Part shown: positions 363-33,611 of the stretch, one piece after another | How the letters are laid out: each line of letters begins with the position of its first letter | Position numbering within the stretch: position 1 is the stretch's first letter | Assembly: GCA_963732305.1 (NCBI GenBank) | Contig: CAVSYW010000002.1 | Coordinates: forward strand, 860,694 to 924,693 | Direction of reading: 5' to 3' | DNA length: 64,000 nucleotides | DNA from: an uncultured Acidobacteriaceae bacterium | GTDB taxonomy: Bacteria > Acidobacteriota > Terriglobia > Terriglobales > Acidobacteriaceae | Program-made: the position numbers and the translations under genes | Notes under the pieces: generated by a model | Databases searched by the model: none | What the model was told of the DNA's origin: nothing | Seen by the model: only the letters and a program-made list of their open reading frames with translations

Positions 363-1658
363 TCAGGCTCGACGGCCATCGCGCACGTTGGCAAAGAAAT
401 TTTCGGGGCCGATCTGGCCGCCTTTGAGCGCGAGTTCGAGTCCATCGAGTGGCGATGCTGCGCTGCCCCGGCAGAGCGGCACGCCGGCCACGAGCGGCGC
501 GGCAAAGGTCAGTGCGTCGATCCCCAGTTGCTTCACGGCATGAGTTGCCGTATCGCCGCCGGCGATCAGAACCCGGCGCACGCCGGTGGCGAGGACGAGC
601 TTGCGCAACAAAACGCCGAGGGCCGTGCCGAAACTTTCGCCGCGCTTTTCGTTCGGAATCTTTGGGCCGAGGGCGGTGTAAAGCACGACACTACGGCCGC
701 TCCTGAGCGATTTATGGGCGTTCGCTGCGACGGTGTTCCACGGTCCCGCGCCTTCAAGACGCCATGCGGCAAACCCCATCTGTTTCGCGCGACGAATCTG
801 CGTGGCCGTCACCGGCGAGCAGCTTCCGCTGAGCACCAGGAGCCGATCGACGGGCGGCGCGGGTTCGAGTGCCTGCGCGGCATGGATCAGTCCCATCGAG
901 CGCCAATGATGCAGAAGCCCATGCGTGAGACCGGAGCTGCCCACGGCAAAGACCGGCTGCACCGCCGCGCGTTCCCAGAGAATGCGTGCGGTTTCCTCAA
1001 GCATGGCGTCGGAGAAGCCATCGAAAACGACGGCGCCGGTATGAGCGGCCACCAGGCGCTGCCAATGTTTCTGCGCGGTTTGTGATTGGAAGGCGGCCAG
1101 ATTGACGAGGCCCATCGGGAGCTTTGTCTGCCGGGCGAGATGCAGGCGCAGGTCGGCCTCCGTCATGGGCGTCACAGGATGACGCCGCATGGTCGGATGG
1201 CGGTCGATGCGGTACATCACGCCGTCGGCCTTGGCGAACAAGTTCCCGAAGACAACGGCGCGTCCCAGGTGCGGCGCTCCCACGACGACAGGAACCGTGC
1301 CGGCGCGAAATACCTGGCGGCCCAACTCCATTGCGCGGCCAATACTGCCAACGCTGGGCGAGCTGTCAAATGTGGAGCAGACTTTGTAGTGATTTACCGG
1401 GGCGCCGAGCCGCCGCATGGCGCGAAAGATTGCGGGCAGATTGCGGCTCATCCATGCGGGTCCGCGGCTGCGGCTTTCGCCTGCGATTCCCACCGCGCGG
1501 CAATCGGAGAAAGCGGCAAGGGCACGCGCATCGGGCGTGCGCGTGAAAAGAACGGCCTTGACGCCGTGAAGCGCCAGCGCTTCAAGCACGTCGGTGGAAC
1601 CGGTAAAGTCGTCGCCGTACCAGACATAGAGCGGATGCGCTGCTGGTTGCGTGCTCAC
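363..1658 (-). CDS. oiaK: Four-carbon acid sugar kinase family (DUF1537/DUF1357_C), OiaK-like
   Basis: GDDFTGSTD, HYKVCSTFDS, LSGSCSP, IAGGDT, LKGGQIG motifs; GTG start at 1658 overlaps the RLP TGA (GTGA coupling). Confidence 0.85.
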   Translation of the reverse strand: MSTQPAAHPLYVWYGDDFTGSTDVLEALALHGVKAVLFTRTPDARALAAFSDCRAVGIAGESRSRGPAWMSRNLPAIFRAMRRLGAPVNHYKVCSTFDSSPSVGSIGRAMELGRQVFRAGTVPVVVGAPHLGRAVVFGNLFAKADGVMYRIDRHPTMRRHPVTPMTEADLRLHLARQTKLPMGLVNLAAFQSQTAQKHWQRLVAAHTGAVVFDGFSDAMLEETARILWERAAVQPVFAVGSSGLTHGLLHHWRSMGLIHAAQALEPAPPVDRLLVLSGSCSPVTATQIRRAKQMGFAAWRLEGAGPWNTVAANAHKSLRSGRSVVLYTALGPKIPNEKRGESFGTALGVLLRKLVLATGVRRVLIAGGDTATHAVKQLGIDALTFAAPLVAGVPLCRGSAASPLDGLELALKGGQIGPENFFANVRDGRRA

Positions 1659-2944
1659 GCGGCAAACGCCTCCAGCGCGGAGCGCAACTCTTCGTGGATT
1701 TTTGCATATTCGGCGAGAGCGATGCCCGCTGCCGCCGCTTCCCACGCTTGATGCAGACTGCGCACGCCTGCGGCAGGACCCGCGGGGTGGGCGAGAATTC
1801 CTCCACCACAGGCATAGATCAGATCCATCGAACCGAGCGCCTTGTATGTATCCGGCGCCTGGCGCGCGGACTGGCCCGAGGAAAAGACCGGCATGATCTC
1901 GCAGCCCTTATGCGGTGAAGGGAACATGGGCTTGAGACACTCTCGCGCGGATGCGATGACGCTCGCGTCGTCTTCGCAAAATTTGTTGCGCAGGCCGTTC
2001 ACGTGGATGTGATCGATGCCGGCGAGCCGCCAGAACTTCTGGAAGGCGATGAAGCTCATTCCCGTGGCATGCGAGCGGCTGAACATGCCCCAGCCGTTGC
2101 GATGGCCATGGATGGCTACCTGCGCATGACGACGCAGCGCGGTCATTGCGGGAAGGCCCACACTATTGACGCTGACCATTACACATGTGCCGCCGGAAGC
2201 GACCACCAGGTCATGACGGCGCAGCATCTGGTCAATTTCGCCGGTGATGTTGGCGGCATACATCGGCCGTTTGCCGATTCTCTCGGCGTATTCGTTCAGG
2301 GCGCGCAGGACCGCGGGAACTCGCTGATCGAAGGGGCAGTGGGGCCCGTCCGATTGCAGTTCGTCGTCCTTGATGAAATCGACGCCGGCCTCGGCCAGCA
2401 TCTTCACTTGTGCCGCGGTTTGCTCCGCCGAAAAGCCGACGCTCGGCTTGATAATCGTGCCGATGATCGGGCGCCCGTGGACGTTTGTGAGCCGCCGCGT
2501 GCCTTCCACGCCGAATTGCGGACCCAGATATGCAGACAGGAAGGCGGGCGGCAATGTGACGTCGAGCAGCTTGAGGCCGGAGAACGGCTTCAGCTCGAAG
2601 AGATTGCCCGCGACGGTTGCCAGCAGGTTGGGGAGCGAGGGGCCCATGTTTTCGATGGGCCAGGAAAGTGTGACTTCCGCGACGCGGCGCACCACGGGGC
2701 CGGTGTGTTTTCTCGGGAGGCCGGAACCGGCGAGCGACGGGGTATCGACTGTGCCCAATTCGACGATTCGCTCTACGCGCGCGGCGTGGCGCTCGCGGAG
2801 TTCGTCGGTTTCGCCTGGAACGCGCACAAACGTTCCAGTAGACTGCTCGCCTGCCATGGTCGCGGCCGCCTCTTCGAGCGGGAACGCCGTCTCGATCCAA
2901 TATCGTGCGTAAACTCGATCCGTACCTGGGGTCTGGCTTGTCAT
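1655..2944 (-). CDS. RuBisCO-like protein (form IV), 3-oxo-isoapionate-4-phosphate transcarboxylase/decarboxylase (OiaT/OiaX)-like
   Basis: GEQSTGT, AGNLFEL, GTIIKPSVG, DFIKDDE (carbamyl-Lys motif), HGHRNG, PVFSSG, CGGGILAHP; no small subunit; coupled to a DUF1537 kinase. Confidence 0.9.
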   Translation of the reverse strand: MTSQTPGTDRVYARYWIETAFPLEEAAATMAGEQSTGTFVRVPGETDELRERHAARVERIVELGTVDTPSLAGSGLPRKHTGPVVRRVAEVTLSWPIENMGPSLPNLLATVAGNLFELKPFSGLKLLDVTLPPAFLSAYLGPQFGVEGTRRLTNVHGRPIIGTIIKPSVGFSAEQTAAQVKMLAEAGVDFIKDDELQSDGPHCPFDQRVPAVLRALNEYAERIGKRPMYAANITGEIDQMLRRHDLVVASGGTCVMVSVNSVGLPAMTALRRHAQVAIHGHRNGWGMFSRSHATGMSFIAFQKFWRLAGIDHIHVNGLRNKFCEDDASVIASARECLKPMFPSPHKGCEIMPVFSSGQSARQAPDTYKALGSMDLIYACGGGILAHPAGPAAGVRSLHQAWEAAAAGIALAEYAKIHEELRSALEAFAA

Positions 2945-2953
2945 TCTTGTTCT

Positions 2954-4741
2954 CTAAACATGCTGGGCATACATCGTGTAGGCTTCATCGCGCACGAAAT
3001 AGAAGGGCGCGTAGGTTCGTGTCCGGTCCGCGGAGTGGAATGAAAAAACTCCCGCCATCTCCGCCGCGGGCCGTAAGGTCTCCTGAATTGCGTAAGTGGT
3101 CTCACCTTCCGCGGGCTTCTGCTCGACATAGACCAGCGGACCACGCAACAGCGCCACCGTCTCGGGATGCAGATCGTCGATTGCTTCTGTGCGAAATTGC
3201 ATGGGCAGTTGAAGAGTGAGCGTATCGCCGCTGGTCCAGCGACGCCGCACCACCGCAAATCCTCGCTCGATATCCGCATGCACCGATCTTCCATTAATGC
3301 GAATCGGCGGCGTCTCATTCATCCACGCAGGAACCCGCAATTGCATCGTGAACTGGGCCGGAGCAGTGCAAGTGACGCGCAAAGACACCGTCTCCCCCAG
3401 CGGGTATTCCGTTTCCTGCGTCAGCGTGACCGTAACTCCGCGCTGCAACCATTTCACGCGCGATGGCGCGTACAAATTGACGGCCACGCCGTCCCTCGCG
3501 CGGAAGTAAACATTCTTCACGTAGTCCGCGACGCTCTCCACGAGGGTTCCCGAGCAGCACGGCCATTTCTTGGCATAGAAAACCTTGTGCGCCGCCGCTC
3601 CATAGGTCGAGTAGTAGGGGTAATCACCGTCGGCGTCGGGTTCTTTCACCGCGAGAACGCCGTTGAAGACGACGCGCTCCAAACCGTCGCCGTAGCGCGC
3701 ATCGCCGGTGGCACAGAGGAGGTAACGCGCGAGTTTGATGGCTGCGTAACTGCCGCAGGGCGTCTCGAAATGATCGTTGGTTGTATGCAGGCTCTCGTAG
3801 AGTTGGCCTTTGCGCGGCTCGATGAATGTCTCGTTCGGCCCCCAACCTCCGGTGGCGAATTGCTGTGTGGATGCGAGAAGTTGCGCCGCGTTTTGCATGG
3901 CACGCAGATATTTTTCGTCGCCCAGCACGAGCCGCGCTTTGCCCGCCGAACTGAGCGCGATGACGTGGCTGTAAGCGTGCCGGCCCGGCAAAACATCCTG
4001 CCCCGCGGCAAGCGGATCGAAGTAATCGCGGTCAAGCATGTAGGCCATCGCGCGGTCGTACAGCGCGCGATCTCCAGTGAGCTCATGAGCGAGAAAAAGA
4101 GACTCGGGCAGAACGTAGGTCTCGTCGTAGGGAGGATCTTTCTTGCCGACCCGGTCGCGCCCGCGTTCGGGAATATACGGAAGAGCACCGTGAAACACGC
4201 GCGGAACAAGATCACGCGCATCCGAAATGCCGCTCAGATTGTACGCATCCATCAATCCGGCAAGGTGTTTGTCGAGGATGTAGCAGGGCCATACGTTTTC
4301 GGCGTTGGGCCCGGCAAAGCACTGGTATTTGGGGCCGAGAGTGGCCGCGAATCCATTTACCAACGCGGCAACCTTCGCAGCGCAGGCGGCGTCACCGGTG
4401 GTTCGGCCGATCCGAGCCAGCCCGGAGATGTATTGCCCAAGTGAATGGCCCGGTACGAAGCCATCGTGGCCGTACCAGCCGCCCATCGGCTCGCCCGGAG
4501 CAGGCAATCCAGCGCGTTCGCGATAGACCTTCAGCAGCCGATCGTTATCGAGGGCGAGATATGCAGCATGAATGCGATCGTACTGGCTCTTGAGAGGCCC
4601 ACCCGTCAGCTCGACCGCTCCATAATCGAACTCGGCCAGCACTTCAGACGCGCTGGGAAGGGCGGTTGTGCTTGCACCGCTCGCCAGTGTGGCCGCGGCT
4701 GCACCGGCTAGAAATTCCCTTCTCGTAATTTCGTTGTCCAT
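2954..4741 (-). CDS. GH127(/GH146) glycoside hydrolase with Tat signal (beta-L-arabinofuranosidase/aceric acid hydrolase family)
   Basis: TRREFL twin-arginine leader; GHSLGQY, HAYS, ETPCGSY and WPCCSGT (Cys3 Zn site) motifs; C-terminal beta-sandwich (TLTQETEYP, LRVPAW). Confidence 0.88.
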   Translation of the reverse strand: MDNEITRREFLAGAAAATLASGASTTALPSASEVLAEFDYGAVELTGGPLKSQYDRIHAAYLALDNDRLLKVYRERAGLPAPGEPMGGWYGHDGFVPGHSLGQYISGLARIGRTTGDAACAAKVAALVNGFAATLGPKYQCFAGPNAENVWPCYILDKHLAGLMDAYNLSGISDARDLVPRVFHGALPYIPERGRDRVGKKDPPYDETYVLPESLFLAHELTGDRALYDRAMAYMLDRDYFDPLAAGQDVLPGRHAYSHVIALSSAGKARLVLGDEKYLRAMQNAAQLLASTQQFATGGWGPNETFIEPRKGQLYESLHTTNDHFETPCGSYAAIKLARYLLCATGDARYGDGLERVVFNGVLAVKEPDADGDYPYYSTYGAAAHKVFYAKKWPCCSGTLVESVADYVKNVYFRARDGVAVNLYAPSRVKWLQRGVTVTLTQETEYPLGETVSLRVTCTAPAQFTMQLRVPAWMNETPPIRINGRSVHADIERGFAVVRRRWTSGDTLTLQLPMQFRTEAIDDLHPETVALLRGPLVYVEQKPAEGETTYAIQETLRPAAEMAGVFSFHSADRTRTYAPFYFVRDEAYTMYAQHV

Positions 4742-4784
4742 TGCGATGGGGTTGCTCTCCTCTGAACCCTACGGTGCGGTTCAG

Positions 4785-4816
4785 GGCCGCCGAAGGTCAA
4801 ACTTCGGCGGCCTTTT
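4785..4816 (+). terminator. Strong hairpin overlapping the regulator stop (U-run on + strand)
   Basis: GGCCGCCGAAG-gtcaaa-CTTCGGCGGCC-TTTT; a second hairpin at 4762-4784. Confidence 0.45.
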
Positions 4817-6038
4817 GATTCCGCAAAGCGGAATTTTCGGGGCCGCTCGCCGACTTGTGCGCGGCGCCTACCGCAGCCTCATCGAGAGGGTACACGAGGG
4901 CCACATTGCGCGGGGTCAACAACTGGTGCTTGACGAAGATGGCCGCCGGCACTGGTTTTTGCTGCAGAATATTGAGCGCCAGGGGAATCAGTTCATCGCC
5001 GTAGCGTTCGGGGAAATAGGCCACCGATCCGACCAGCCGCGTGCCCGGCCTGCGCAATTCCGCGCGCGCTTCGCGGAGGGCATTCTGGCCCATCACGGCG
5101 CACTGCTGCGATGCGCCGGCTTCTTCAAAAGCGCGCAGCGCGGCCAGTGCGCAGATATCGTTCACCGTGCCCACGAGCGTGCGGCGCGGTTCGCGGCGGC
5201 GCAGGTACTTGCGCAGCACGTCGAGCACCTGTTCAAAATTTCCGCGGCCGTTGAGCCGGACCAGCGGAGCCTCGACAATTCTCGGCAACTCCGCGCGCAG
5301 CCCGTCGACCAGGCCGGAAAGGCGCAACTCCAGGAGCGACCCGGCGATGGGCAGCTCCACAAGAACCAGCTGATCCACCTTGCCTTCCCAGTTTTCGCGC
5401 GCCCAACGGCCCAGGGCGCGACCGCCGATGAGCCCGGCCTTATAATTATCCGCGCCGAAGTAAGTAGCGCCTGGATGCGGCACTTCGATGGCGATGACGG
5501 GCACGTTTGCGGCCAGAAATTTTGAGGCGATGACGGGCGCCACGCGCTCGTAGGTCTGGAATTCGAGGACCAGGTCGACGCGTTCGCGAATCAGCACATC
5601 GGCGTTGCGCAACGCCTCGCGGGCGCTGTAGCGATTGTTGAGGGTGATGAGCTGCACGTGCTCACGCGCCGCTGCGTTGACCAAGCTGCGCGTCACCTCG
5701 CGCGCAAATTCAGTGTCGCCCTGCGTAGCAAAACCGATGCGGAAAGGCCGCGCCGTGACCGGTCCAAAACTGTTGCGATAGACGCCCGCACTCACGCGCT
5801 CCACCAGCCCGCCGTGAATGAGCGTGCGCAGCAGGCGAAAGGTGGTGGTCTTGGGCAGGCCGGTGCGCTCCATTACAGTGGTGAGCGGCAAATCTTCTCC
5901 GAGATGACGAAAAGCTTTGAGCACTTCGCATGCGCGCAGAACAGTCTGCGACTCATTGCGGTCGCTGCTGCGGCCATTCGCCTCCGCGGCGTCCTGCTCC
6001 AGATCCTCCGGGGCCTGTTTGTCCTCGCGTCGCGCCAC
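4797..6038 (-). CDS. Transcriptional regulator: IclR-type HTH fused to a periplasmic sugar-binding-like domain
   Basis: N-terminal SQTVLRACEVL...TGLPKTTTFRLLRTL HTH followed by a LacI/RbsB-type domain (VIAIEVPHPGATYFGADN, VMGQNA). Confidence 0.85.
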   Translation of the reverse strand: MARREDKQAPEDLEQDAAEANGRSSDRNESQTVLRACEVLKAFRHLGEDLPLTTVMERTGLPKTTTFRLLRTLIHGGLVERVSAGVYRNSFGPVTARPFRIGFATQGDTEFAREVTRSLVNAAAREHVQLITLNNRYSAREALRNADVLIRERVDLVLEFQTYERVAPVIASKFLAANVPVIAIEVPHPGATYFGADNYKAGLIGGRALGRWARENWEGKVDQLVLVELPIAGSLLELRLSGLVDGLRAELPRIVEAPLVRLNGRGNFEQVLDVLRKYLRRREPRRTLVGTVNDICALAALRAFEEAGASQQCAVMGQNALREARAELRRPGTRLVGSVAYFPERYGDELIPLALNILQQKPVPAAIFVKHQLLTPRNVALVYPLDEAAVGAAHKSASGPENSALRNQKAAEV

Positions 6039-6079
6039 GTTCCTTGTTCCTCTCCCGGGATTCGGACTTCAGGCGCCAC

Positions 6080-6107
6080 AGTATATTCCGATTCCCGGAA
6101 TTGGCAA
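6080..6107 (-). promoter_or_regulatory. sigma70-like promoter of the regulator with a palindromic operator in the spacer
   Basis: Minus strand TTGCCA-N16-TATACT; perfect palindrome ATTCCG-N5-CGGAAT at 6085-6101. Confidence 0.6.
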
Positions 6108-6362
6108 GTCCGATTTTTGCTTCGTCCGCAGGGGCCCCGCACGCGCGGTTGAATTCCGACCGGTCCTCAGGATCGTCCCAGACTTCCGATCCCAGGGGAC
6201 GCGCCCGACCGAAGGGTTGCGGCACGTGAAGTGGGCGCGCGAATCGAGAGAGCCGAGAAGTGATTGGCTCTACCAATCTCCTACCAGCGAAAGCGTTTGC
6301 TGTTGACCGATTCAGCCGCGGCAAATACGATTCGCTTGGAACCGACAGGAGAAACAATTGGG

Positions 6363-7214
6363 ATGGAAATGCCGCCGAAAGAACCGGAGCGCGCTGCTTG
6401 GCTGAAGCACAGAGCCAATTGGATCCGGCTCAGCGCCATGACCATGAACCATCATGCGCAACTGGGTCACACCGGCGGCGATCTCTCCGCAGCCGACATC
6501 CTGGCCGTGCTGTTTCTCGGCGGACTTTTGAAAATTGACCCTGCGCAACCCCGATGGCCCGAGCGTGATCGCTTCATTCTCTCCAAGGGGCACGGCGCCG
6601 CGGCGTATTATTCGACGCTCGCCGCGCGCGGATTTTTCCCGATCGAGCAGCTTAAGACCTACATGGACCCGCTCTCGATGCTGAACGGCCATCCAGACCG
6701 CAACAAGCTGGCCGGCGTCGAGGCCAACACCGGCCCGTTGGGGCACGGGTTGCCCATCGCTGTGGGCGCGGCGTTGGCTGCCCGCATGAGAAAGGAGTCC
6801 TGGCGGGTGTTTGTCCTCACCGGCGATGGTGAGTTGCAGGAGGGCTCCAACTGGGAGGCCGCGATGACCGCGCAACACTACGGTCTCGACCAACTCACCG
6901 TAATTGTGGACCGCAATCGCATCCAGCAGGGCGATTTTACGGAAAATACGATTCGCATGGAGCCGTTGGCCGAGCGCTTCCGGGCGTTCGGATTCGCCGT
7001 GGAGGAAATCGACGGCCACTCCACTGCGGCACTCTTCGATCGCTTGTCGCATTTGCCTCTGGAAAAGAGCAAGCCCTCGTGCATCATCGCGAACACGGTG
7101 AAGGGCAAGGGTGTTTCTTTCGCGGAAAATCAACCTGCATGGCATCATGGCGTGCCAACGAAGGAGCAACTTGCCACGGCGGCGAGAGAACTTGGCGTGG
7201 AGGTGGCGTGGTGA
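6363..7214 (+). CDS. aptA: Transketolase N-terminal subunit (apulose-4-phosphate transketolase A-like)
   Basis: GHTGGDLS, LSKGH, GPLGHGL, GDGELQEGSNWE ThDP motif, WHHGVP; AGGAG upstream of ATG 6363. Confidence 0.85.
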   Translation: MEMPPKEPERAAWLKHRANWIRLSAMTMNHHAQLGHTGGDLSAADILAVLFLGGLLKIDPAQPRWPERDRFILSKGHGAAAYYSTLAARGFFPIEQLKTYMDPLSMLNGHPDRNKLAGVEANTGPLGHGLPIAVGAALAARMRKESWRVFVLTGDGELQEGSNWEAAMTAQHYGLDQLTVIVDRNRIQQGDFTENTIRMEPLAERFRAFGFAVEEIDGHSTAALFDRLSHLPLEKSKPSCIIANTVKGKGVSFAENQPAWHHGVPTKEQLATAARELGVEVAW

Positions 7215-8179
7215 GCGGCTTATCCTCATCTGCAACCGGCCAGCAGCTCTTCGACTGCCGCGACGCCTATATGAACGCTCTTGAAGAGATGGCGGCCGTC
7301 GACCCGCGCGTGTGTGCCGTGGCCAACGACTCGGTGTCTTCGGCGAAGCTCAAGAATTTTAAAAGCAAGTTCCCTGAGCGCTTTGTCAATGTCGGCATTG
7401 CCGAACAGAACATGGTGGGCGTAGGCGCGGGGCTGGCAAACGGCGGCATGGTTCCTTACGTCTGCGGCGCGGCGTGCTTCCTGACCGCGCGCGCCATGGA
7501 GCAGATCAAAGTCGATCTCGCGTACACCAAAGCAAACGTGAAGCTCTGCGCCATGTCGCCGGGCATGGCCTACGGACAGCTTGGGCCCACGCATCACTCC
7601 ATTGAAGATTTGGCCTGGATGCGCGTGCTGCCGAATCTCGTCGTGATTGTTCCGGCCGATCCCGCGGAGACCGCGGCTGTGATGCGCTACTCGCTCGTGC
7701 ACGAGGGGCCGATGTTCCTGCGCATCGCGCGCGTGCCCGTGCCGCGCGTGCATGGTGACGATTACGAATTCAGATTGGGTAAAGCTGTGCGGTTGCGCGA
7801 GGGCTGCGATGTAACTCTTATTGCGAACGGTCTGTTGGTGAGCCGCGCCCTCGATGCGGCCAAAGCGCTTGAGGCGCGCGGACTATCGGCGCGCGTGCTG
7901 AATATGAGTACTGTGAAACCGCTCGATGGCGAGGCGATTCTTGATGCGGCCCGCACCACTCGCGGCATTGTCACCGCGGAGGAAGCATTGGCGGCCGGTG
8001 GATTGGGTGGCGCAGTCGCCGAGGTGCTTGCGCTGGAACATCCCGCGCCGATGCGCATACTGGGCGTGCCCGACGTTTTCGCGCCTACGGGTACGGCAGA
8101 ATTCCTGCTCGAACATTTTGGGCTGACCGCGGCGGGGATCGAATGCGCGGCCCTGGAACTGCTGAAGCGAGAGGCATAG
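7211..8179 (+). CDS. aptB: Transketolase C-terminal subunit (apulose-4-phosphate transketolase B-like)
   Basis: VNVGIAEQNMVG, RAMEQIK, GPTHHSIED, GGLGGAVAE; GTGA overlap with aptA. Confidence 0.85.
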   Translation: MSGLSSSATGQQLFDCRDAYMNALEEMAAVDPRVCAVANDSVSSAKLKNFKSKFPERFVNVGIAEQNMVGVGAGLANGGMVPYVCGAACFLTARAMEQIKVDLAYTKANVKLCAMSPGMAYGQLGPTHHSIEDLAWMRVLPNLVVIVPADPAETAAVMRYSLVHEGPMFLRIARVPVPRVHGDDYEFRLGKAVRLREGCDVTLIANGLLVSRALDAAKALEARGLSARVLNMSTVKPLDGEAILDAARTTRGIVTAEEALAAGGLGGAVAEVLALEHPAPMRILGVPDVFAPTGTAEFLLEHFGLTAAGIECAALELLKREA

Positions 8180-9691
8180 ATGGCAGGCGAATGGATTCTC
8201 GCGATCGACCAGGGAACGACCAACACCAAAGCATTGTTGGTGGATCGCGAAGGGCGCACTGGCTATCGTGTCTCGACGCCGCTTGAAATCCTGCAACCGC
8301 AGCCGGGCTTTGTGGAGCAGGATCCGCTCGCGCTCTGGCAGTCGGTGGTTCAAGTCATCGTGGCGTGTGCGCGCCACGCGAGGTCGGAAGGCGCAACCAT
8401 TACGGGAATCGCGATCACGAATCAGCGCGAGACCGCTGTTGCATGGCGTCGGGCCGCAGCGGGAAGCTTCGCCGCGGGTGAACCTGTGGGCAACGCCATC
8501 ACCTGGCAGTGCCGGCGTTCCGCGCCCGTCTGCGATCGCGTTCGCACGCATGCGGCGACGATTCAATCCGTGACGGGTCTCCCGCTCGACCCGTTGCTGA
8601 GCGCCACCAAGTGGGCGTGGCTCTTCGATCAGCATCCCGAACTGCGGGCACAGGCAGCGCTTGGCGATCTGCATCTCGGCACCGTCGACGCGTGGTTGCT
8701 TTATAACCTGACCGGTGGCAGGGTTCACGCCACCGATCACACGAACGCTTCGCGCACCGCGCTGCTCAGCTTGGCGACGCTAGATTGGGACCCAGCGCTG
8801 AGCGAGCTTTTCGAAATTCCCCGCGCGGCAATGCCCGCAGTGCGCTCGTCAAGCGGAGATTTTGGAGTTTGCGCTGCCATTCCCGAGCTCGCCGGCGTTC
8901 CTATCGTCGTCCTAATCGGCGACTCGCATGCCGCGCTCGTGGGCCACGGCCGCTACGAGCCGGGAACGGTGAAGGCCACTTATGGCACCGGCTCTTCTCT
9001 CATGATGCTTTCGGCGGAACTCGTGACGGAGGCGAAACAGCTCGCACGCACCGTTGCATGGTCGACGGAGGGCGGCGCGCACTTCGCGCTTGAAGGCAAC
9101 ATCGCCATGAGCGGCGCGGCCGTGCAATGGGTGGGCGAATTCCTCGGCCTTGCGCATCCTGTTGAAGACGCCGCGGCGCTGGCCGCAACCGTACCCGACG
9201 CCGCCGGTTTGATACTCGTGCCCGCAATGGTGGGGCTCGGCGCGCCGCATTGGGACTCGGCTGCGCGCGGCCTGATGACAAATGTCGAGCGCTCGCACAC
9301 GGCCGCTCATCTGGCTCGCGCTGCGATTGATGCGATTGCTTTCCAGGTGGCCGATGTCCTGGAAGCGATGGAAGAGGCCGCGCGTGTGAAGCTGCCGGTT
9401 CTGCTGGCCGACGGCGGCGCTACGCGCAACGATGCGCTGATGCAGATGCAGGCCGACGTTCTGGGCCGGCCCGTGCATCGCTCCACGCAAGAGGATCTCT
9501 CCGCGCGCGGTGCAGCCCTGCTGGGCGGCCTCGCCCTTGGATGGTGGCGCTCGCTCGACGAACTTGCTGCGCTGCCGAATCCTAAGCAGCATTTCGAGCC
9601 GCGCAGTACGCAGGCCGATCGCGGGCGTCTGCGCAGCGCGTGGCGGCTTGCCGTCGAGCGCGCACGGCTCACTGCGGAGCGTGTTGCATGA
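8180..9691 (+). CDS. aplK: FGGY-family sugar kinase, glycerol-kinase-like (apulose kinase-like)
   Basis: LAIDQGTTNTK, ITNQRET, GTVDAWL, TYGTGSS, ADGGATRN; context with aptAB. Confidence 0.75.
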   Translation: MAGEWILAIDQGTTNTKALLVDREGRTGYRVSTPLEILQPQPGFVEQDPLALWQSVVQVIVACARHARSEGATITGIAITNQRETAVAWRRAAAGSFAAGEPVGNAITWQCRRSAPVCDRVRTHAATIQSVTGLPLDPLLSATKWAWLFDQHPELRAQAALGDLHLGTVDAWLLYNLTGGRVHATDHTNASRTALLSLATLDWDPALSELFEIPRAAMPAVRSSSGDFGVCAAIPELAGVPIVVLIGDSHAALVGHGRYEPGTVKATYGTGSSLMMLSAELVTEAKQLARTVAWSTEGGAHFALEGNIAMSGAAVQWVGEFLGLAHPVEDAAALAATVPDAAGLILVPAMVGLGAPHWDSAARGLMTNVERSHTAAHLARAAIDAIAFQVADVLEAMEEAARVKLPVLLADGGATRNDALMQMQADVLGRPVHRSTQEDLSARGAALLGGLALGWWRSLDELAALPNPKQHFEPRSTQADRGRLRSAWRLAVERARLTAERVA

Positions 9692-11256
9692 TCCAGGCGC
9701 ATGAGGCGGAAGCAGAGGTGATTCTGGAGGCCCGCAACATTACCAAGCGTTTTCCCGGCAACGTCGCGCTCGATGGCGTCACTTTCCGTGCGTATCGCGG
9801 ACAAGTGAATGTGCTCATCGGTGAAAACGGCGCGGGGAAGTCGACGCTGATGCGCATCCTGGCGGGCGCGGAAAAAGCCGATGATGGTCAACTGTTTCTC
9901 GATGGCCGGCCGATTGAGCTGCGCTCGCCGCGCGATGCATCGTCGCACGGAATCTCGATTGTCTACCAGGAGTTGCTGACCCTAACCAATCTGAAGATCA
10001 GCGAAAACATTTTTGCCGGCCGGGAACTTTGTCGCGCGGCGGTGCTGGTCGATCAAGTGGCAGAAGACCGGCGGTCGAGATCGGTTCTTGAGCACCTGCG
10101 GAAACCCATGGATGTGGGCACCGAAACAGGGAGGCTGTCGCTCGGTTGCAGGCAGGTGGTGGAGATTGCCCGCGCCCTCGATCAGGGTTCGAGGATTCTG
10201 ATTCTGGATGAGCCGACTTCCGCGCTTTCGGCATCGGAGGCGGAGTCGCTTTTCGAGGTCATCGCAGATTTGAAGGGCGCCGGTGTGACGATCATCTACA
10301 TCTCGCACCGGCTGCATGAACTACTCCATCTTGGCGATCGATTTACCGTGCTGCGCTCGGGGCGCGTGGTGGGCGAGGCGACACGAGCCGACGCGACGCG
10401 CGCGTGGATCGTGGAGCGCATGTCGGGTCGCAAGGAAGGCGCTAGCGACGCGCCCACTGCGATTGCGCCGGCTCGTCCCACGGTGCTGACGGTAAGGGGC
10501 CTCACTCTGCCCGGCTCGGTTGGTGATGAAGCCGCACGGGCAGCGTTGCACGATGTAAGTCTTGATCTCCGCGAAGGCGAAATCCTCGGAGTCTACGGGC
10601 TGCTGGGCGCGGGACGAACCGAACTGGTGGAATCGCTTGCCGGTCTTCGGCCAATCGCGTCGGGATCTGTAGCAATTCGAGGACAAAGAATTCGCAACGG
10701 CAGCGTGCGCGACGCATTAAGGGCGGGGATGGTCCTGATGCCCGAAGACCGGCAGCGCGACGGCCTCTTTCCGGAGCTTTCGATTCGCGAAAATGTCGTC
10801 ATGGCGGCGGAGACGGGCCTCTTTCTTTCGCGAGACGAAGAGACCAATCGTGTGCGCAAGCTTACGGCTGAATTGCACATCGCTGCGAAAGACATCGAGC
10901 ATCCCGTGACCACGCTTTCCGGAGGAAATCAGCAGAAGGTGCTGTTGGCGCGATGCCTGATGTGCTCACCATCGGTTCTGTTGATGGACGAGCCGACCCG
11001 CGGTGTCGATGTGGGCGCAAAGGCCGAGATTTACGGCATTCTGCGCGAGCTGGCGGCGAAAGGACTGAGCATTTTGTTTACGTCATCGGAGATCGAAGAG
11101 ACGCAAGCGCTCGCCGCACGCGTGCTTGTGCTCTGCCAGGGACGAATTTCAGCGGAGTTTTCGCACAACGAGTTGAGCGACGAGGGCTTGTTTGCCGCTG
11201 CCAGTCCTTCAGTTACCGCTTCGGCCAACAAATCGATCGCGGGAGGTACCGCATGA
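9688..11256 (+). CDS. Sugar ABC transporter ATP-binding protein (double ATPase, CUT2 family)
   Basis: GENGAGKST, LILDEPT, LSGGNQQKV, LMDEPTRGVDVGAK; ATGA overlap. Confidence 0.95.
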   Translation: MIQAHEAEAEVILEARNITKRFPGNVALDGVTFRAYRGQVNVLIGENGAGKSTLMRILAGAEKADDGQLFLDGRPIELRSPRDASSHGISIVYQELLTLTNLKISENIFAGRELCRAAVLVDQVAEDRRSRSVLEHLRKPMDVGTETGRLSLGCRQVVEIARALDQGSRILILDEPTSALSASEAESLFEVIADLKGAGVTIIYISHRLHELLHLGDRFTVLRSGRVVGEATRADATRAWIVERMSGRKEGASDAPTAIAPARPTVLTVRGLTLPGSVGDEAARAALHDVSLDLREGEILGVYGLLGAGRTELVESLAGLRPIASGSVAIRGQRIRNGSVRDALRAGMVLMPEDRQRDGLFPELSIRENVVMAAETGLFLSRDEETNRVRKLTAELHIAAKDIEHPVTTLSGGNQQKVLLARCLMCSPSVLLMDEPTRGVDVGAKAEIYGILRELAAKGLSILFTSSEIEETQALAARVLVLCQGRISAEFSHNELSDEGLFAAASPSVTASANKSIAGGTA

Positions 11257-12338
11257 GTTCCGCCACGCACAACCAACCGCGCGTCCATCGTTTCGCGTTG
11301 GCGTCGGCTCGCGCTATTCTGCTTCTGCTGCGGGCCCGCGCCATTATGGTGCTGGTGTTGCTTCTCGCCTTGTTCTCCGTGCTTGCCCCTGAGTTTCTCA
11401 CCGCCAACAACCTCTCGATCCTCACCAAGCATGTAGCCATCACCGCAATTCTTGCGGTGGGGATGACCTTTGTCGTGCTGACCGGCGGCATCGATCTATC
11501 AGTTGGCTCCATCGCAGGACTCGGCGGTATGGTGGCGGGTTATCTTCTCACGCAGGGGCTCTCGATTGGCGGCGGGACGCATTATCCGCCTGTCGCCATC
11601 GTCATCCTGCTCACGATCTGCGCGTGCCTGCTGGTGGGTGCGCTCAACGGATGGCTGGTTGCCAAGGCCGGCGTCGCTCCGTTCATTGCGACGCTGGGCA
11701 CGCTCTATATCGCACGCGGCGCGGCGCTGTTGATCTCGAACGGAAAAACGTTTCCTAATCTTGGCGGCGGAGCATCGAGAGGCAGTACGGGATTCCCCGC
11801 ATTCGGTCAAAGTTTCCTGCTGCATGTGCCCACGCCGGTCTGGATGATGATGGCGCTCTTCGCTGTGGCGTGGGTGGTGGCGACGAAGACCCCGTTCGGC
11901 AGGCATGTATATGCGATTGGCGGAAACGAACGCGCGGCGCGGCTGGCGGGCATTCGCGTGGCGCAGGTGAAGGTGGCCACGTATGTCTTTTCGGCGTTCT
12001 GCGCTGCGCTGGTCGGGCTCATCATCGCGGCGCAACTGGAGGCCGCACATCCGGCAACCGGTGAAAGCTTTGAGCTGAACGCGATAGCGGCGGTGGTGCT
12101 GGGCGGAACGTCGCTGATGGGCGGCCGAGGCTCGGTGACGGGCTCGCTGATTGGCGCGTTTGTGATCGGGGTTCTTGCCGACGGCCTGGTGATGCTGGGC
12201 GTTTCTGAGTTTTGGCAGATCGTGATCAAAGGCGTAGTGATTGTGCTGGCCGTCGGACTCGATCAGTTGCAGACGCGGCTGCAGGCCAGGATTCTGCCGT
12301 ACTTGACTACGGCGAGCGTCGGGGAAGGCCAATCATGA
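11253..12338 (+). CDS. Sugar ABC transporter permease (RbsC-like)
   Basis: TGGIDLSVGS, FIATLG, FGRHVYAIGGNERAARLAG, IAAVVLGGTSL. Confidence 0.95.
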   Translation: MSSATHNQPRVHRFALASARAILLLLRARAIMVLVLLLALFSVLAPEFLTANNLSILTKHVAITAILAVGMTFVVLTGGIDLSVGSIAGLGGMVAGYLLTQGLSIGGGTHYPPVAIVILLTICACLLVGALNGWLVAKAGVAPFIATLGTLYIARGAALLISNGKTFPNLGGGASRGSTGFPAFGQSFLLHVPTPVWMMMALFAVAWVVATKTPFGRHVYAIGGNERAARLAGIRVAQVKVATYVFSAFCAALVGLIIAAQLEAAHPATGESFELNAIAAVVLGGTSLMGGRGSVTGSLIGAFVIGVLADGLVMLGVSEFWQIVIKGVVIVLAVGLDQLQTRLQARILPYLTTASVGEGQS

Positions 12339-13282
12339 TGCGCCGCGCGCTTGCCCTGTTTGGATGCGGGTTGGCGCTGCTGCTTGTGTGCGCCGGATGC
12401 CACCGCGACCAGCATCGCAAGAAGTTGATCGTCATCATTGTTCCTTCGCAAGACAATCCCTATTTCAAGGCCGAAGCCGATGCCGCCGCCGCGCGCGCGC
12501 TCGAACTCGGCTATCGCGTGCGCGTGGACGCGCATGAAGACGACGCGTATCGTCAGGACAACCTGGTGGATGCAGCCATCGCCTCGAATGCAGCGGTCAT
12601 CATATTGGACAATGCGGGCGCCGATGCAACCGTGTCTGCGGTCCGTCGCGCAACCAAAGCGGGCATCGCAGTGTTTCTCATTGACCGAGAAATCGACGCC
12701 ACGGGGATTGCGAAGGCGCAGATCATTTCAGACAACGATCAAGGTGCGCGGCTGGTTGCGGCGGAGTTTGCGCGCGCGATGAACGGAAAGGGCGAGTACG
12801 CGGAGCTGATTGGCAAAGAATCCGACACCAACGCCCAGATTCGCACCAAAGGCTTTCACGCCGTGCTCGATCGGTTTCCGGGCCTCAAGCTGGTCTCCGC
12901 GCAGTCCGCGAACTGGTCGCAGTCGGAGGCGTTTCAAAAGACAGAAACCATGCTGCAAGCCCACGGGAATATCGCAGGCATCATTGCCGGGAACGATACG
13001 ATGGCTCTGGGAGCCGCGGCGGCAGTGAAGTCCGCCGGGATTTCGAACCTGCAGATCACAGGATTCGATGGCAGCCCCGATGCGATTGACGCCATCAAGG
13101 CCGGCGAGTTGCGTGCCACCGCCTTGCAGCCGGCCGTGCTGATCTCTCGGCTCGCAGTGGACGAGGCAGATCGGTTTTTGAAGACGGGCTCGACCGGCCA
13201 GCAGGAACTGCAAATCATTCCCTGCGAGCTGGTCACTGCCAGCAATGCGGGCGACTATCGCAATTTTGAAAAGGTAAGGTGA
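12335..13282 (+). CDS. Sugar ABC substrate-binding lipoprotein, D-apiose-binding-protein-like
   Basis: Lipobox VCAGC; segments DNPYFKAEA, LDNAGADA, FLIDREI, GKESDTNA, SANWSQ, GNDTMA, recalled as characteristic of apiose import binding proteins. Confidence 0.8.
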   Translation: MMRRALALFGCGLALLLVCAGCHRDQHRKKLIVIIVPSQDNPYFKAEADAAAARALELGYRVRVDAHEDDAYRQDNLVDAAIASNAAVIILDNAGADATVSAVRRATKAGIAVFLIDREIDATGIAKAQIISDNDQGARLVAAEFARAMNGKGEYAELIGKESDTNAQIRTKGFHAVLDRFPGLKLVSAQSANWSQSEAFQKTETMLQAHGNIAGIIAGNDTMALGAAAAVKSAGISNLQITGFDGSPDAIDAIKAGELRATALQPAVLISRLAVDEADRFLKTGSTGQQELQIIPCELVTASNAGDYRNFEKVR

Positions 13283-14724
13283 GCGTCATGGCGAATTCAA
13301 CTTGTCTTGGAGTCATCGTTGGCAATCGCGACTTCTTTCCCGATGTGCTGATCGCGGAAGCTCGCAAAGATCTGACCAAGCTTTTTGCGGAGCTGAAGAT
13401 CGAGCCGGTCTGGCTTTCGCCTGAAGAGTCGAAGCTGGGCGCGGTGGAAACCTGGGCCGACGCGCAGAAATGCGGCGAGCTGCTGCGCAGAAACCGCGAC
13501 CGCGTCGAGGGCGTCCTGGTCTGCCTGCCGAATTTCGGCGACGAGAAAGGAGTTGCCGACTCCATCCGCCTCGCTGAAACGCACGTTCCGGTTCTGGTGC
13601 AGGCTTGCCCCGACGATCTCGATCAGTTCGGTCTCGACCGCAGGCGCGACGCGTTCTGCGGCAAGATTTCGGTCTGCAACAATCTGCGCCAGTACCGGAT
13701 TCCGTATTCGCTCACGCGCGATCACACGGTGGCGATCCTCGATGCGCGGTTCCGCGAAGACCTGGTGCAGTTTGTCCAAACCTGCAAGGTGGTGCGCGGT
13801 CTGAGCCGGGTGCGCATCGGAGCGGTTGGAGCGCGGCCCAACGCATTCAACACCACGCGCTTCAGCGAAAAACTTTTCGAAGCTTCAGGCATCACGGTGA
13901 ACACCATCGATCTTTCCGAAGTTTTTGGAAATGCCGCCAAGATCTCCAGCGACGACAAGCGCGTCGGCGAGCGCGTCGACAAAATTCGTTCGTATGCCGA
14001 TGCGTCGAAAGTCCCCGATGAGGCCATTGTGCGTATGGCGAAGTTTGCGCTGGTGGTGGACGACTGGATGCAGTCGCTATCGATCACGGCGACCGCCATC
14101 CAGTGCTGGAGCTCGCTGCAGAAAAACTTTGGCGTGAATGTGTGCACCATCATGTCGATGATGAGCGAGCAGATGCTGCCCTCGGCTTGCGAAGTGGACA
14201 TCGCAGGCGTCGTAGGCATGTACGCATTGCAACTTGCCAGCGATAGCCCAAGCGCACTCGTTGACTGGAACAACAATTACGGCGGCGATCCCGAGAAGTG
14301 TGTTTTTTTCCACTGCGGCAACTGGGCTAAGGACTTTCTGCCCGACATCCGCATTGCCACCGCGCCTATTCTTGGCACGACGCTGGGCGAAGAAAACACG
14401 TTTGGCGCGCTGGAGGGCCGCACGCTTGCTGGACCTGTGACCTTCGGCCGCGTCAGCACTGACGACCTCAACGGCAGAATCACCGCTTACGTCGGCGAAG
14501 GCGAATTCACGAACGATCCGCTGAAGACCTTCGGCACGCGAGCGGTAGTGAAAGTGGCAGGGCTGCCGGCGCTCATGCATGTGATCTGCCAGAACGGCTT
14601 TGAGCACCACGCCGCGATGAACCGCAGTCACACCGCAGCCGCGGTAGCCGAGGCGATGAGCCGCTATCTTGGCTGGACGACTTATCACCACAACCGGCCG
14701 GCGGAATTACCTCCCTTGCCGTGA
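13279..14724 (+). CDS. L-fucose/L-arabinose isomerase family protein
   Basis: NFGDE, DAFCGKISV, AIQCW, SACEVD, FHCGN, GFEHH motifs; GTGA overlap with the SBP gene (alternative ATG 13288). Confidence 0.85.
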   Translation: MSVMANSTCLGVIVGNRDFFPDVLIAEARKDLTKLFAELKIEPVWLSPEESKLGAVETWADAQKCGELLRRNRDRVEGVLVCLPNFGDEKGVADSIRLAETHVPVLVQACPDDLDQFGLDRRRDAFCGKISVCNNLRQYRIPYSLTRDHTVAILDARFREDLVQFVQTCKVVRGLSRVRIGAVGARPNAFNTTRFSEKLFEASGITVNTIDLSEVFGNAAKISSDDKRVGERVDKIRSYADASKVPDEAIVRMAKFALVVDDWMQSLSITATAIQCWSSLQKNFGVNVCTIMSMMSEQMLPSACEVDIAGVVGMYALQLASDSPSALVDWNNNYGGDPEKCVFFHCGNWAKDFLPDIRIATAPILGTTLGEENTFGALEGRTLAGPVTFGRVSTDDLNGRITAYVGEGEFTNDPLKTFGTRAVVKVAGLPALMHVICQNGFEHHAAMNRSHTAAAVAEAMSRYLGWTTYHHNRPAELPPLP

Positions 14725-28879: not shown

Positions 28880-29055
28880 AAGACCAGGTTCGAGGACTGA
28901 CCGAGGTAATAGAGGGCGGAGCGCGAGCGCGGGTGCGGGCCCTTGCTCCCTGCTTTTTTCAATAGGCATGAGATTGCAATAGACAATTGATGCGCAAGGG
29001 TTTATGATTCGTTTTCCTGGATGATGGCTTTATCTTTTCATGGATGAGTGGCTGG

Positions 29056-29808
29056 ATGCGGGCTTCGCTCTTCATTACTTGTTATAACGACACTTTGTAT
29101 CCCGAGACTGGGCGGGCGGTGGTGCGGTTGCTGGAGCGGCTGGGCGTGGAAGTGGAGTTTCGCGCGGGGCAGACTTGCTGCGGACAGATGCATGCGAATA
29201 CCGGCTTTCGGAGCGAGGCTTTCAGCCAGGCCAGGCGGCTGGTGCGGCTGTATGCGGACGCCGAGGCGGTGGTGATTCCGTCGTCGTCGTGCGTGGCGAT
29301 GATGCGCGATCAGTATCCGGGGCTTTTTGAGGAGCTGGGCGACGAGGGGCTGCGGCGGGATTATGCGGCGCTGTTGCCGCGGGTGTTTGAGCTGAGCGAA
29401 TTTCTTGTGGACAAATTGGGCGTGGAGGATGTGGGCGCGTATTTTCCGCACCGCGTGACGTACCACGCGAGTTGCCACGGGCTTAGGGCACTGCGGCTGG
29501 GCGACCGGCCGTTTCGGCTCTTGAAAAACGTGCGCGGACTGGAGCTGGCGCCGCTGGAGAATCTGGACCGCTGCTGCGGGTTCGGCGGGACGTTCAGCGT
29601 GAAAAACGGCGATGTGTCGTCGGCGATGCTGACGGTGAAGCTCGAAGATGTGCTGTGGACGCGGGCGGAGTTTTGCACGGCGCTGGATAATAGCTGCCTG
29701 ATGCACCTGGGCGGGGCGATGCATCGCGCGTATGCGCCGATGAAGACGATTCATATGGCGGAGATTTTGGCGAGCACGCAGGACGAGCCGGCTGAGGTGG
29801 CGGGATGA
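29056..29808 (+). CDS. lutA: Lactate utilization protein A (CCG Fe-S protein)
   Basis: FITCYND, QTCCGQ, YHASCH, CCGFGGTFSVKN, CLMHL. Confidence 0.93.
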   Translation: MRASLFITCYNDTLYPETGRAVVRLLERLGVEVEFRAGQTCCGQMHANTGFRSEAFSQARRLVRLYADAEAVVIPSSSCVAMMRDQYPGLFEELGDEGLRRDYAALLPRVFELSEFLVDKLGVEDVGAYFPHRVTYHASCHGLRALRLGDRPFRLLKNVRGLELAPLENLDRCCGFGGTFSVKNGDVSSAMLTVKLEDVLWTRAEFCTALDNSCLMHLGGAMHRAYAPMKTIHMAEILASTQDEPAEVAG

Positions 29809-32050: not shown

Positions 32051-32112
32051 TGTGGTCGAGAGGGAACCGGGATTTGTGCTGGGTTGAAGAAGTGGGTCGG
32101 GGTTCGTGCTGT

Positions 32113-32320: not shown

Positions 32321-32334
32321 ACTGCGAGGGGAAA

Positions 32335-33531: not shown

Positions 33532-33576
33532 AAAGCAGCTGTCAGCTAGTAGAGTTAGGTTGAAGTCGATGGTCTT

Positions 33577-33611
33577 CCCCGGTCCCCAAAAGCGAGGGAC
33601 CGGGGGCACCC
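33577..33611. repeat. REP-like hairpin family A
   Basis: ccccggtccc-caaaagcga-gggaccgggg-gcaccc. Confidence 0.8.

Follow-up and report, generated by a model that had tools for sequence, protein, structure and literature searches.

A RuBisCO-like protein cassette beside a transketolase-type operon in an uncultured Acidobacteriaceae bacterium: candidate units for two branched sugars of rhamnogalacturonan-II

At the left end of a 64,000-nucleotide stretch of DNA from an uncultured Acidobacteriaceae bacterium (contig CAVSYW010000002.1 of assembly GCA_963732305.1, positions 860,694 to 924,693; this whole stretch is called the window), two gene groups diverge from each other: a left-hand arm with a DUF1537 kinase, a RuBisCO-like protein (RLP), a glycosidase of the GH127/GH146 clan (GH, glycoside hydrolase) and a regulator, and a right-hand operon that encodes a split transketolase and an FGGY kinase together with an ABC importer and a fucose-isomerase-fold protein. 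We infer that the region holds two separate units for two branched sugars of side chain B of rhamnogalacturonan-II (RG-II). The right-hand operon would serve D-apiose, and L-aceric acid is the best available explanation of the left-hand arm, one that its gene associations place slightly on the probable side. The observations behind it are the gene content of the arm, its synteny, the absence from the genome of ApnO, an enzyme of the oxidative apiose route, and the recurrence of the same cassette beside genes for aceric acid hydrolases in other phyla; the setting, with glycosidases of the chain B type (GH29, GH78, GH42, GH43-like and GH140-like) and a TonB-dependent receptor, is in line with it. 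All genes listed in an earlier note on this DNA were recovered with Pfam and NCBIfam at the same coordinates (Table 1), and the two-arm layout is taken as real because it is syntenic with a JGI contig whose RLP is 85% identical. Two further conserved genes of the left-hand unit lie just outside the window, namely the 5' part of an MFS transporter gene and a gene for a protein with the aspartate/glutamate racemase fold (AGR).

The kinase and the RLP resemble OiaK and OiaT/OiaX, the pair that works in the oxidative D-apiose/D-apionate pathways (summarised in PMC13753588): common to both is a DUF1537 kinase followed by an RLP of the same clade, and the chemistry proposed here would also be alike, with phosphorylation of a CH2OH group beside a ketone and RLP-driven loss or migration of a tertiary carboxylate. 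The RLP is the only one in the genome and falls in the 3-oxo-isoapionate-4-phosphate clade; it has both large-chain domains and the carbamylated-Lys/Asp/Glu metal site (FIKDDE) of an RLP-type member of the RuBisCO superfamily, its best solved structure is 3NWR (408 bits), and the alignment shows the catalytic motifs GEQSTGTF, GNLF, IIKPSVG, FIKDDE, HGHRNGWG, HVNGLRNKF, SSGQ and GGG to be kept. The kinase, likewise the sole copy, has the two-domain architecture SBD_N plus NBD_C. Reference sequences of ApsD, ApnL, ApnO, OiaK and RLP were taken from the annotated apiose cluster on a plasmid of Paraburkholderia sprentiae and compared by tblastn; the RLP is 56% identical to the ApnO-linked RLP of that cluster and the kinase 44% identical to its OiaK. 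Both proteins stay under the 700-bit cut-offs of the curated models (449 bits for the kinase on OiaK model NF042436, 445 bits for the RLP on OiaX model NF042437; the models scored included none for OiaT). We rejected these low scores as a sign of new specificity, since ApnO-linked relatives score equally low (477 bits for an ApnO-linked acidobacterial kinase, 444 and 515 bits for ApnO-linked RLPs; the Paraburkholderia OiaK passes with 822 bits); the OiaK shortfall reflects phylogenetic distance and is no proof of a different function. An RLP homologue with 86% identity (P0074) carries the JGI label transcarboxylase/hydrolase (OiaT). Homologue searches with the RLP and the fucose-isomerase-fold protein returned only near-identical Terracidiphilus sequences, which suggests a Terracidiphilus-like source for the window; the diversity described below comes from a representative library and from locus scans.

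The difference from the OiaK plus OiaT/OiaX systems is that the present genome lacks ApnO, ApsD and ApnL, and that the cassette comes instead with the racemase-fold protein AGR, a transporter of anion type and a glycosidase of the GH127 clan. ApnO found no match in the genome at E<=1e-3, a result that was repeated in a genome-wide search with positive controls (G016 and G251, 299 and 289 bits), and ApsD and ApnL found only generic Gfo/Idh/MocA and SMP-30 proteins of 25-31% identity. The earlier note had observed that the oxidative apiose enzymes are missing from both operons; this holds genome-wide, including the sequence just left of the window, which the note had named as a place where apsD, apnL or apnO might lie. 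Only 6 of 401 sampled Acidobacteriota genomes carry an RLP of the window type. ApnO is missing from four of four Acidobacteriaceae genomes with this RLP (the present one, 91% complete, and the sister genomes G299, G219 and G099, each 99-100% complete) and present, 3-4 kb from the RLP, in two RLP-bearing Acidobacteriota genomes of another family; given this distribution among near-complete genomes, its absence belongs to the lineage and is not due to a gap in the assembly. The planctomycete genome G401 and Lacibacter cauensis (G702) lack ApnO as well, and the search in the latter contained a positive control. The ApnO-containing acidobacterial loci have a gene of about 480 aa between RLP and kinase (L090:10669-12108 and L091:10442-12124). 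A megablast search against plasmids returned only short matches to transketolase and RLP genes.

The earlier note had proposed looking for GH127, RLP and DUF1537 kinase genes together without ApnO, and this combination recurs in Acidobacteriota, Planctomycetota and Bacteroidota. In L. cauensis (GCA_007830055.1), one strand carries genes for GH141-like, Gfo/Idh/MocA, SSF, MFS, GH78-like, GH127, RLP, DUF1537 kinase, AGR, SBF, GH88/105, GH2, GH130/43-like and GH106 proteins. Its GH127 reaches 1150.2 bits (positions 3-657) on the NCBIfam model of aceric acid hydrolase, NF049879, the cut-off of which is 950, and the cassette of RLP, kinase, AGR and SBF begins 96 bp after it; the fucose-isomerase-like gene is on another contig. 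The Gfo/Idh/MocA gene of this locus was considered as a candidate ApsD and rejected, there being no similarity. Enzymes of families GH141, GH78, GH127, GH2 and GH106 reportedly dismantle chain B of RG-II in Bacteroides thetaiotaomicron. A Chitinophagaceae-type contig (L173) has, likewise on one strand, a fragment of a GH127 gene followed by RLP, kinase, AGR and SBF; over the last 54% of the same model the fragment reaches 585.6 bits. In a metagenome-assembled genome of the Lacipirellulaceae (G401), one strand encodes GH29, the fucose-isomerase-fold protein, split transketolase, FGGY kinase, ABC importer, RLP, kinase, AGR and SBF, and a GH127 gene lies on the other strand, about 3.8 kb past the SBF gene; this GH127 scores 577 + 281 bits on NF049879 (model 6-656) and 438.7 bits against 5MQO, the structure of the B. 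thetaiotaomicron enzyme BT1003, compared with at most 198 bits against other GH127 structures. In Lacibacter a gene of the true BT1003 type immediately precedes the cassette, and in the planctomycete such a gene is close by. Among 301 genomes of Planctomycetota, 4 were positive for the co-occurrence, which is too few for use.

The transporters of these cassettes are non-homologous, belonging to the MFS anion:cation symporter family in the Acidobacteriaceae and to SBF/BASS in the other phyla. Both are anion-carrying types, which points to an acidic substrate. The acidobacterial locus appears to be a variant of the cassette in which an MFS protein takes the place of SBF/BASS and a Tat-exported GH146-like enzyme (Tat, twin-arginine translocation) that of the BT1003 type. 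Across the three phyla no oxidoreductase is conserved with the cassette, and no aldolase accompanies it either. In the RLP tree, the basal positions are taken by loci that contain both ApnO and AGR (L148, L172, L166 and L129). The Acidobacteriaceae without ApnO group in a derived clade (21 sequences, support 100/97), and the cassettes of Bacteroidota and Planctomycetota form a clade of their own (100/100). A possible reading is that the mixed loci funnel apionate (through ApnO) and aceric acid (through AGR) into one kinase/RLP pair, and that ApnO was lost and the rest kept where apiose came to be handled by the transketolase route or, as in G099, not at all.

AGR is a core member of the cassette and tightly linked to the RLP/kinase pair. 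An unbiased metagenome scan with an AGR alignment gave 80 loci, and gene content was counted in the 15 where AGR has 8 kb or more of sequence on each side; a DUF1537 kinase is nearby in 13 of them, an RLP in 12, a GH127 of the window type in 11, and transketolase and ApnO in four each. The protein belongs to PF01177 (78-81 bits), and its predicted model (pLDDT 91.9) has TM scores of 0.76-0.80 to aspartate, glutamate, hydantoin and allantoin racemases at 13-20% identity. It therefore has the fold of the Asp/Glu/hydantoin racemase superfamily, but one of the two catalytic cysteines: the orthologues keep the first-site cysteine (VTCSS), and the second site reads LAQASMA in six of six. Because only the first of the two is conserved, AGR probably works with one base, as arylmalonate decarboxylase does, rather than as a classical racemase. 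The likeness to arylmalonate decarboxylase and one-base members of the superfamily extends to the fold and to the retention of one of the two cysteine positions; the difference is that AGR keeps the first site rather than the second, and that its identity to solved members is as low as given above.

For the chemistry, we start from the observation that no oxidoreductase is conserved with the cassette, which implies a substrate already at the oxidation level of 3-oxo-isoapionate; among the sugars of RG-II, as we reason from the chemistry, aceric acid alone is at that level. We agree with the earlier suggestion that aldose-ketose isomerisation of aceric acid would give HOOC-C(OH)(CHOH-CH3)-CO-CH2OH, the methyl homologue of 3-oxo-isoapionate, with no redox step. 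The left-hand unit could then work as follows. The Tat-exported GH127/146-type glycosidase would free L-aceric acid in the periplasm, and the MFS transporter, a member of the anion:cation symporter/D-galactonate transporter subfamily (TIGR00893) and our candidate for importing the acidic sugar, would bring it into the cell; its gene is convergent with the kinase gene in all Acidobacteriaceae loci that we examined. AGR might convert aceric acid into the 2-ketose HOCH2-CO-C(OH)(COOH)-CHOH-CH3, the most speculative of the steps, and the DUF1537 kinase would phosphorylate the new primary hydroxyl; it could act only after isomerisation, because free aceric acid has no primary hydroxyl. By decarboxylation, recarboxylation and hydrolysis, an OiaT-like RLP would finally yield 3-phosphoglycerate and L-lactate. 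We prefer this OiaT-type outcome to simple decarboxylation because no aldolase for 5-deoxypentulose-1-phosphate is found with the cassette and because of the JGI label, though sequence alone does not decide between the two. AGR is a better candidate for the entry step than the fucose-isomerase-like enzyme, since AGR, unlike the isomerase, is a constant part of the cassette. Taken as a whole, namely that the cassette is the first catabolic pathway for L-aceric acid, with AGR as a cofactor-free aldose-ketose isomerase, an RLP that forms 3-phosphoglycerate and L-lactate by carboxyl migration and hydrolysis in the manner of RuBisCO, a GH146-like enzyme in the role of BT1003 in Acidobacteriaceae, and a loss of ApnO after the transketolase route had taken over apiose, the proposal is doubtful.

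The RLP arm is independent of the right-hand operon, because the unit is kept where the transketolase operon is unlinked or absent. In a second genus (L087-L089) the order regulator, GH127, RLP, kinase, MFS, AGR, GH42 and GH78/GH29 is retained, and the transketolase operon is not adjacent: genomes G299 and G219 of this genus have that operon on another contig, and G099, which has no transketolase, no orthologous isomerase and only a 50% identical paralogue, keeps the GH127-RLP-kinase unit. The regulator (an IclR-type helix-turn-helix domain fused to a sugar sensor resembling periplasmic binding proteins) had been described in the earlier note as shared by both arms. It is transcribed in the same direction as the left-hand arm and accompanies it at loci (L087-L089) that the transketolase operon does not adjoin, so it belongs to that arm and is not demonstrably shared.

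The proteins of the right-hand operon are the genome's best matches to the apiose cluster of E. coli SE15 (defined in PMC13001218), with 39-56% identity; AptA, AptB and AplK are without curated models, and E. coli AplK is almost as close to a second FGGY kinase on contig C7 (39.5%) as to that of the operon (43%). The sugar-binding protein is close to a Rhizobium etli protein of PDB entries 5IBQ and 4RY0, which we take to be an apiose-binding protein holding D-apiose. In this unit the ABC importer would take up D-apiose, the fucose-isomerase-fold enzyme would convert it to apulose, the AplK-like kinase would phosphorylate apulose, and the AptAB-like split transketolase would cleave the product to dihydroxyacetone phosphate and a transferred C2 unit. 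With the apiose transketolase pathway (ApsI, AplK and AptAB), known from Pectobacterium carotovorum and from the E. coli ST131 cluster of PMC13001218, the window shares its split transketolase, its FGGY kinase and its ABC importer of CUT2 type; it differs in an isomerase of the fucose-isomerase fold where E. coli has two SDR oxidoreductases, and in having no DUF2291 gene. An Agrobacterium tumefaciens plasmid (NZ_CP049218.1, 22533-32554; L003) carries a cluster that matches in make-up that of E. coli ST131, in which apsI is lacking: a split transketolase and an FGGY kinase, an ABC importer and a SorC-type regulator, and two SDR oxidoreductases. ApsI is a TIM-barrel enzyme.

The fucose-isomerase-fold protein has no sequence match in the PDB, and its sole NCBIfam match is SftI, at 109 bits (cut-off 700). 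A fucose-isomerase-fold isomerase (SftI) with a split transketolase is known from the sulfoquinovose transketolase pathway; the window isomerase is far below the SftI cut-off, and the operon has no sulfo-sugar genes and an apiose-type binding protein instead. A locus scan with one genome per species, seeded with a four-sequence alignment (a 13-sequence version was too divergent), gave 80 loci with orthologues of 52-92% identity, from Acidobacteriota, Chloroflexota, Verrucomicrobiota, Planctomycetota, Alphaproteobacteria, Bacillota and others. A split transketolase lies within 10 kb of the isomerase in 42 of the 80, mostly with an FGGY kinase and an ABC importer and in at least five phyla; RLP and kinase lie as near in one only (L067). 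Because of this co-location across phyla, the enzyme is probably integral to the transketolase route, and on the simplest reading it would be an apiose isomerase. The earlier note had made it the isomerase of aceric acid, a role that is most likely wrong, given these counts and the presence of the cassette without an orthologue in G099. A paralogue with 48% identity (G000:C5:380150-381574; L092:9151-10575) was considered as the partner of the cassette and rejected, as its own neighbours are an SSF symporter gene and, near by, phosphoketolase genes; two proteins without Pfam domains also adjoin it. The paralogue also occurs in G299, G219 and G099.

Several observations weigh against an assignment to aceric acid, beginning with the glycosidase. 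The earlier note had relied on BT1003 as the precedent for the GH127 of the window. BT1003 is an aceric acid hydrolase and the sole characterised member of GH127/GH146 that is not an arabinofuranosidase; all characterised GH146 enzymes are arabinofuranosidases (PMC10850190). The precedent fails: the window enzyme reaches 92.8 bits on NF049879, in model positions 337-567 only, and the genome contains no BT1003-type GH127 gene. Its best match in the PDB and nearest solved relative, although of low identity, is 5OPJ, the GH146 beta-L-arabinofuranosidase BT0349 of B. thetaiotaomicron (BtGH146; 137 bits over residues 151-540, against 52 bits for 5MQO). What it shares with BT1003, which comes from the RG-II locus of B. 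thetaiotaomicron, is the clan with its Zn-Cys3-Glu motifs (ETPC and WPCC of the Zn-Glu/Cys3 set, mapped by motif and not by superposition); it differs in having no match to the GH127 C-terminal domain and in its Tat export, predicted from a twin-arginine leader at the N-terminus (MDNEITRREFLAGAAAATLA). We nevertheless propose that it frees an acidic furanose in the periplasm, on the positional ground that, from one phylum to another, two divergent enzymes of the clan are found at the one place upstream of the RLP (here the glycosidase gene is 9 bp upstream of the RLP gene).

Other points on the same side concern the RLP and AGR. For both units every substrate and every reaction is read from gene association. 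The RLP catalytic motifs are the same in ApnO-linked and ApnO-less loci, and a comparison of residues separating the two groups, which yielded a two-residue insertion and a few peripheral substitutions, was set aside as not interpretable. Seven metagenome loci hold ApnO together with AGR (L129, L137, L148, L159, L166, L172 and L174), with MFS in six of the seven, kinase in six, RLP in five, at least one of these last two in six, and the window-type GH127 with its regulator in two; this mixed architecture is not among the apiose clusters of the published descriptions that we compared. It implies that RLPs of this clade work with ApnO in relatives and that AGR is no simple replacement of ApnO. 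AGR, together with SBF, may have a more general role with acid sugars, as a planctomycete operon without an RLP (G700; L175, C35:1-16631) combines SSF, split transketolase, AGR, SBF, an iron-type alcohol dehydrogenase (Fe-ADH), DHDPS-family and PdxA-family proteins, a DtnK-like DUF1537 kinase and a further SSF. The weakest step is the use of AGR as an aldose-ketose isomerase, which is without precedent in the fold and would require a 1,2-proton shift by a single thiol; classical racemase chemistry is ruled out because aceric acid has a quaternary carbon next to its carboxylate. In the present genome, moreover, AGR is split over three frames (L002 17095-17208, 17183-17473 and 17472-17804). The 14 genes flanking it align in one frame each and AGR is intact in eight close metagenomic relatives, so the frameshifts may mark a real pseudogene, in which case the cassette may be defective here, or a local assembly error.

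These points bear on four other accounts of the left-hand arm. The kinase and RLP could still be acting on 3-oxo-isoapionate, made from apiose or imported apionate, if ApnO (and ApsD and ApnL) had been replaced by enzymes that homology misses. Such a classical oxidative route would explain the identity of both proteins to members of a canonical ApsD/ApnL/ApnO cluster, the OiaT label of a near RLP homologue, the unchanged catalytic motifs and the related loci that unite ApnO, AGR, MFS, kinase and RLP, and apionate would suit the anion transporter too. We regard it as improbable, given that six cassette-bearing genomes in three phyla are without ApnO, that no oxidoreductase is conserved beside the cassette (the Gfo/Idh/MocA protein of L. 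cauensis not being ApsD-like), that the ApnO reaction requires NAD+, which a racemase fold does not bind, and that G099 has kept the cassette without any apiose route. It is similarly unlikely, in our judgement, that the arm is co-regulated and chemically unrelated, with the glycosidase a beta-L-arabinofuranosidase acting on RG-II, arabinan or extensin, and with RLP, kinase, AGR and transporter degrading an acid of plants or soil other than aceric acid. In its favour are the arabinofuranosidases that are closest to the glycosidase among characterised enzymes, and the occurrence of AGR and SBF with a different DUF1537 route. What it leaves unexplained is that BT1003-type and GH146-like enzymes occupy the same slot directly upstream of the RLP in different phyla, that the BT1003-type enzyme of L. 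cauensis passes the equivalog cut-off for aceric acid hydrolase, and that, by our own reasoning, no other acid of RG-II has a tertiary C(OH)(COOH) centre of the kind on which this clade of RLPs acts.

The version of the earlier note, in which the fucose-isomerase-like enzyme of the right-hand operon isomerises aceric acid and feeds kinase and RLP, seems to us very improbable. The gene does adjoin the cassette here, in L005 and in a planctomycete operon (L067/L093), the enzyme has no characterised close relative, and the fucose/arabinose isomerase family is generally known to take deoxy-L-sugars. Against this, in many phyla it is kept, with no RLP near, alongside the split transketolase, the FGGY kinase and the ABC importer, it is on another contig in G299, G219 and L. 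cauensis, and G099 has the cassette with only the 50% paralogue, which in the present genome adjoins an SSF symporter; D-apiose and aceric acid, as we reason, also have opposite configurations at C2, which makes one enzyme for both unlikely. Whatever the ancestral role, the RLP arm might also be a decaying remnant that no longer works in the present strain, a possibility that is to be taken seriously but is still doubtful: two frameshifts fall within about 700 bp of AGR among 14 single-frame neighbours, and the close relatives have the gene intact, but here the genes for RLP, kinase, glycosidase, regulator and MFS transporter are each intact, and the assembly may be locally wrong. The proposal of an aceric acid pathway therefore stands in part. 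Its core, an RLP and a kinase without ApnO, ApsD and ApnL and tied to the release of an acidic RG-II sugar, is retained, and its isomerase and its BT1003 precedent are given up.

Aceric acid is, to our knowledge, found only in RG-II. Its release is known from BT1003; like the earlier note, we know of no described pathway for its consumption, none having been found in a full-text literature search, and a 2026 preprint on RG-II gives only apiose enzymes as known. The presence of the four-gene cassette in Acidobacteriota, Planctomycetota and Bacteroidota points to named genes in cultured bacteria such as L. cauensis. If the assignment to aceric acid is correct, it would add a further physiological substrate for RLPs and a new type of reaction for the Asp/Glu-racemase fold, and it would provide a genomic marker for soil bacteria that fully mineralise the most complex plant pectin. 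RLPs of the window type are very abundant in soil metagenomes (8000 candidates were scored in the homologue search).

Table 1. Features of the left-hand unit, the right-hand operon and the second sugar locus. Positions are those of the window, and negative numbers lie upstream of its first letter.
Feature	Position	Strand	Basis
AGR gene	-1599 to -890 (C2:859095-859804; L002:17095-17804)		PF01177 fold
MFS transporter, 3' end	1-345 (start at -890)	+	Pfam MFS_1 167 bits; TIGR00893 191 bits
DUF1537 kinase (SBD_N + NBD_C), OiaK-like	363-1655	-	PF07005 181 bits; PF17042 94 bits
RLP, OiaT/OiaX-like	1655-2944	-	PF00016 235 bits; PF02788 45 bits
GH127/GH146-clan cysteine glycosidase, predicted Tat-exported	2954-4741	-	PF07944 151 bits; PF20736
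Regulator, IclR-type helix-turn-helix fused to periplasmic-binding-protein-like sugar sensor	4797-6038	-	Pfam
Perfect palindrome ATTCCG-N5-CGGAAT, candidate operator	6085-6101	.	Divergent intergenic region between regulator and transketolase genes
Transketolase N-terminal (thiamine diphosphate-binding) subunit, AptA-like	6264-7214	+	Pfam; 45% to E. coli SE15 AptA
Transketolase C-terminal subunit, AptB-like	7211-8179	+	Pfam; 42% to E. coli SE15 AptB
FGGY kinase, AplK-like (glycerol-kinase-like)	8180-9691	+	Pfam; 43% to E. coli SE15 AplK
ABC ATPase	9688-11256	+	Pfam, NCBIfam; 44% to E. coli apiose-cluster ATPase
ABC permease	11253-12338	+	Pfam, NCBIfam; 56% to E. coli apiose-cluster permease
Sugar-binding protein	12212-13282	+	39% to E. 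coli sugar-binding protein; 5IBQ 323 bits, E 1.6e-95
Fucose-isomerase-fold protein (Fucose_iso_C)	13279-14724	+	PF02952 104 bits
LutABC-type lactate utilisation genes	29044-32050		
TIM-barrel isomerase	32272-33531		
Paralogous IclR-type helix-turn-helix/binding-domain regulator	34400-35548		
Class II aldolase/SDR fusion	36338-38557		
FGGY kinase of the second sugar locus	38609-40036		

Some of the gene limits in Table 1 were set by comparison. The length of the DUF1537 kinase (430 aa) was taken from synteny, the longest open reading frame reaching 1745; the start of the AptB-like subunit also follows synteny, the longest open reading frame beginning at 7079; and the genes of the ABC importer align in a single frame to L005.

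Upstream of the window lie, besides MFS and AGR, genes for GH42, GH43-like, GH78 and GH29 enzymes, a TonB-dependent receptor and an apiosidase-like GH140. The GH140-like protein (DUF5060 + PF13204 + DUF5605) adjoins the receptor, which has 1359 aa (L002:2841-4430 and 4825-8904; window -15853 to -9790), and the upstream glycosidases and receptor together would make up an RG-II-type utilisation island in an acidobacterium. A PdxA gene 18 kb upstream was considered as the partner of the DUF1537 kinase and rejected, as it passes the housekeeping PdxA model (336 vs 290 bits).

A second sugar locus in the window (29044-40036) resembles an L-rhamnose regulon and includes, at 34400-35548, a paralogue of the regulator of the left-hand arm. 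Its LutABC-type genes could also consume lactate made by the RLP.

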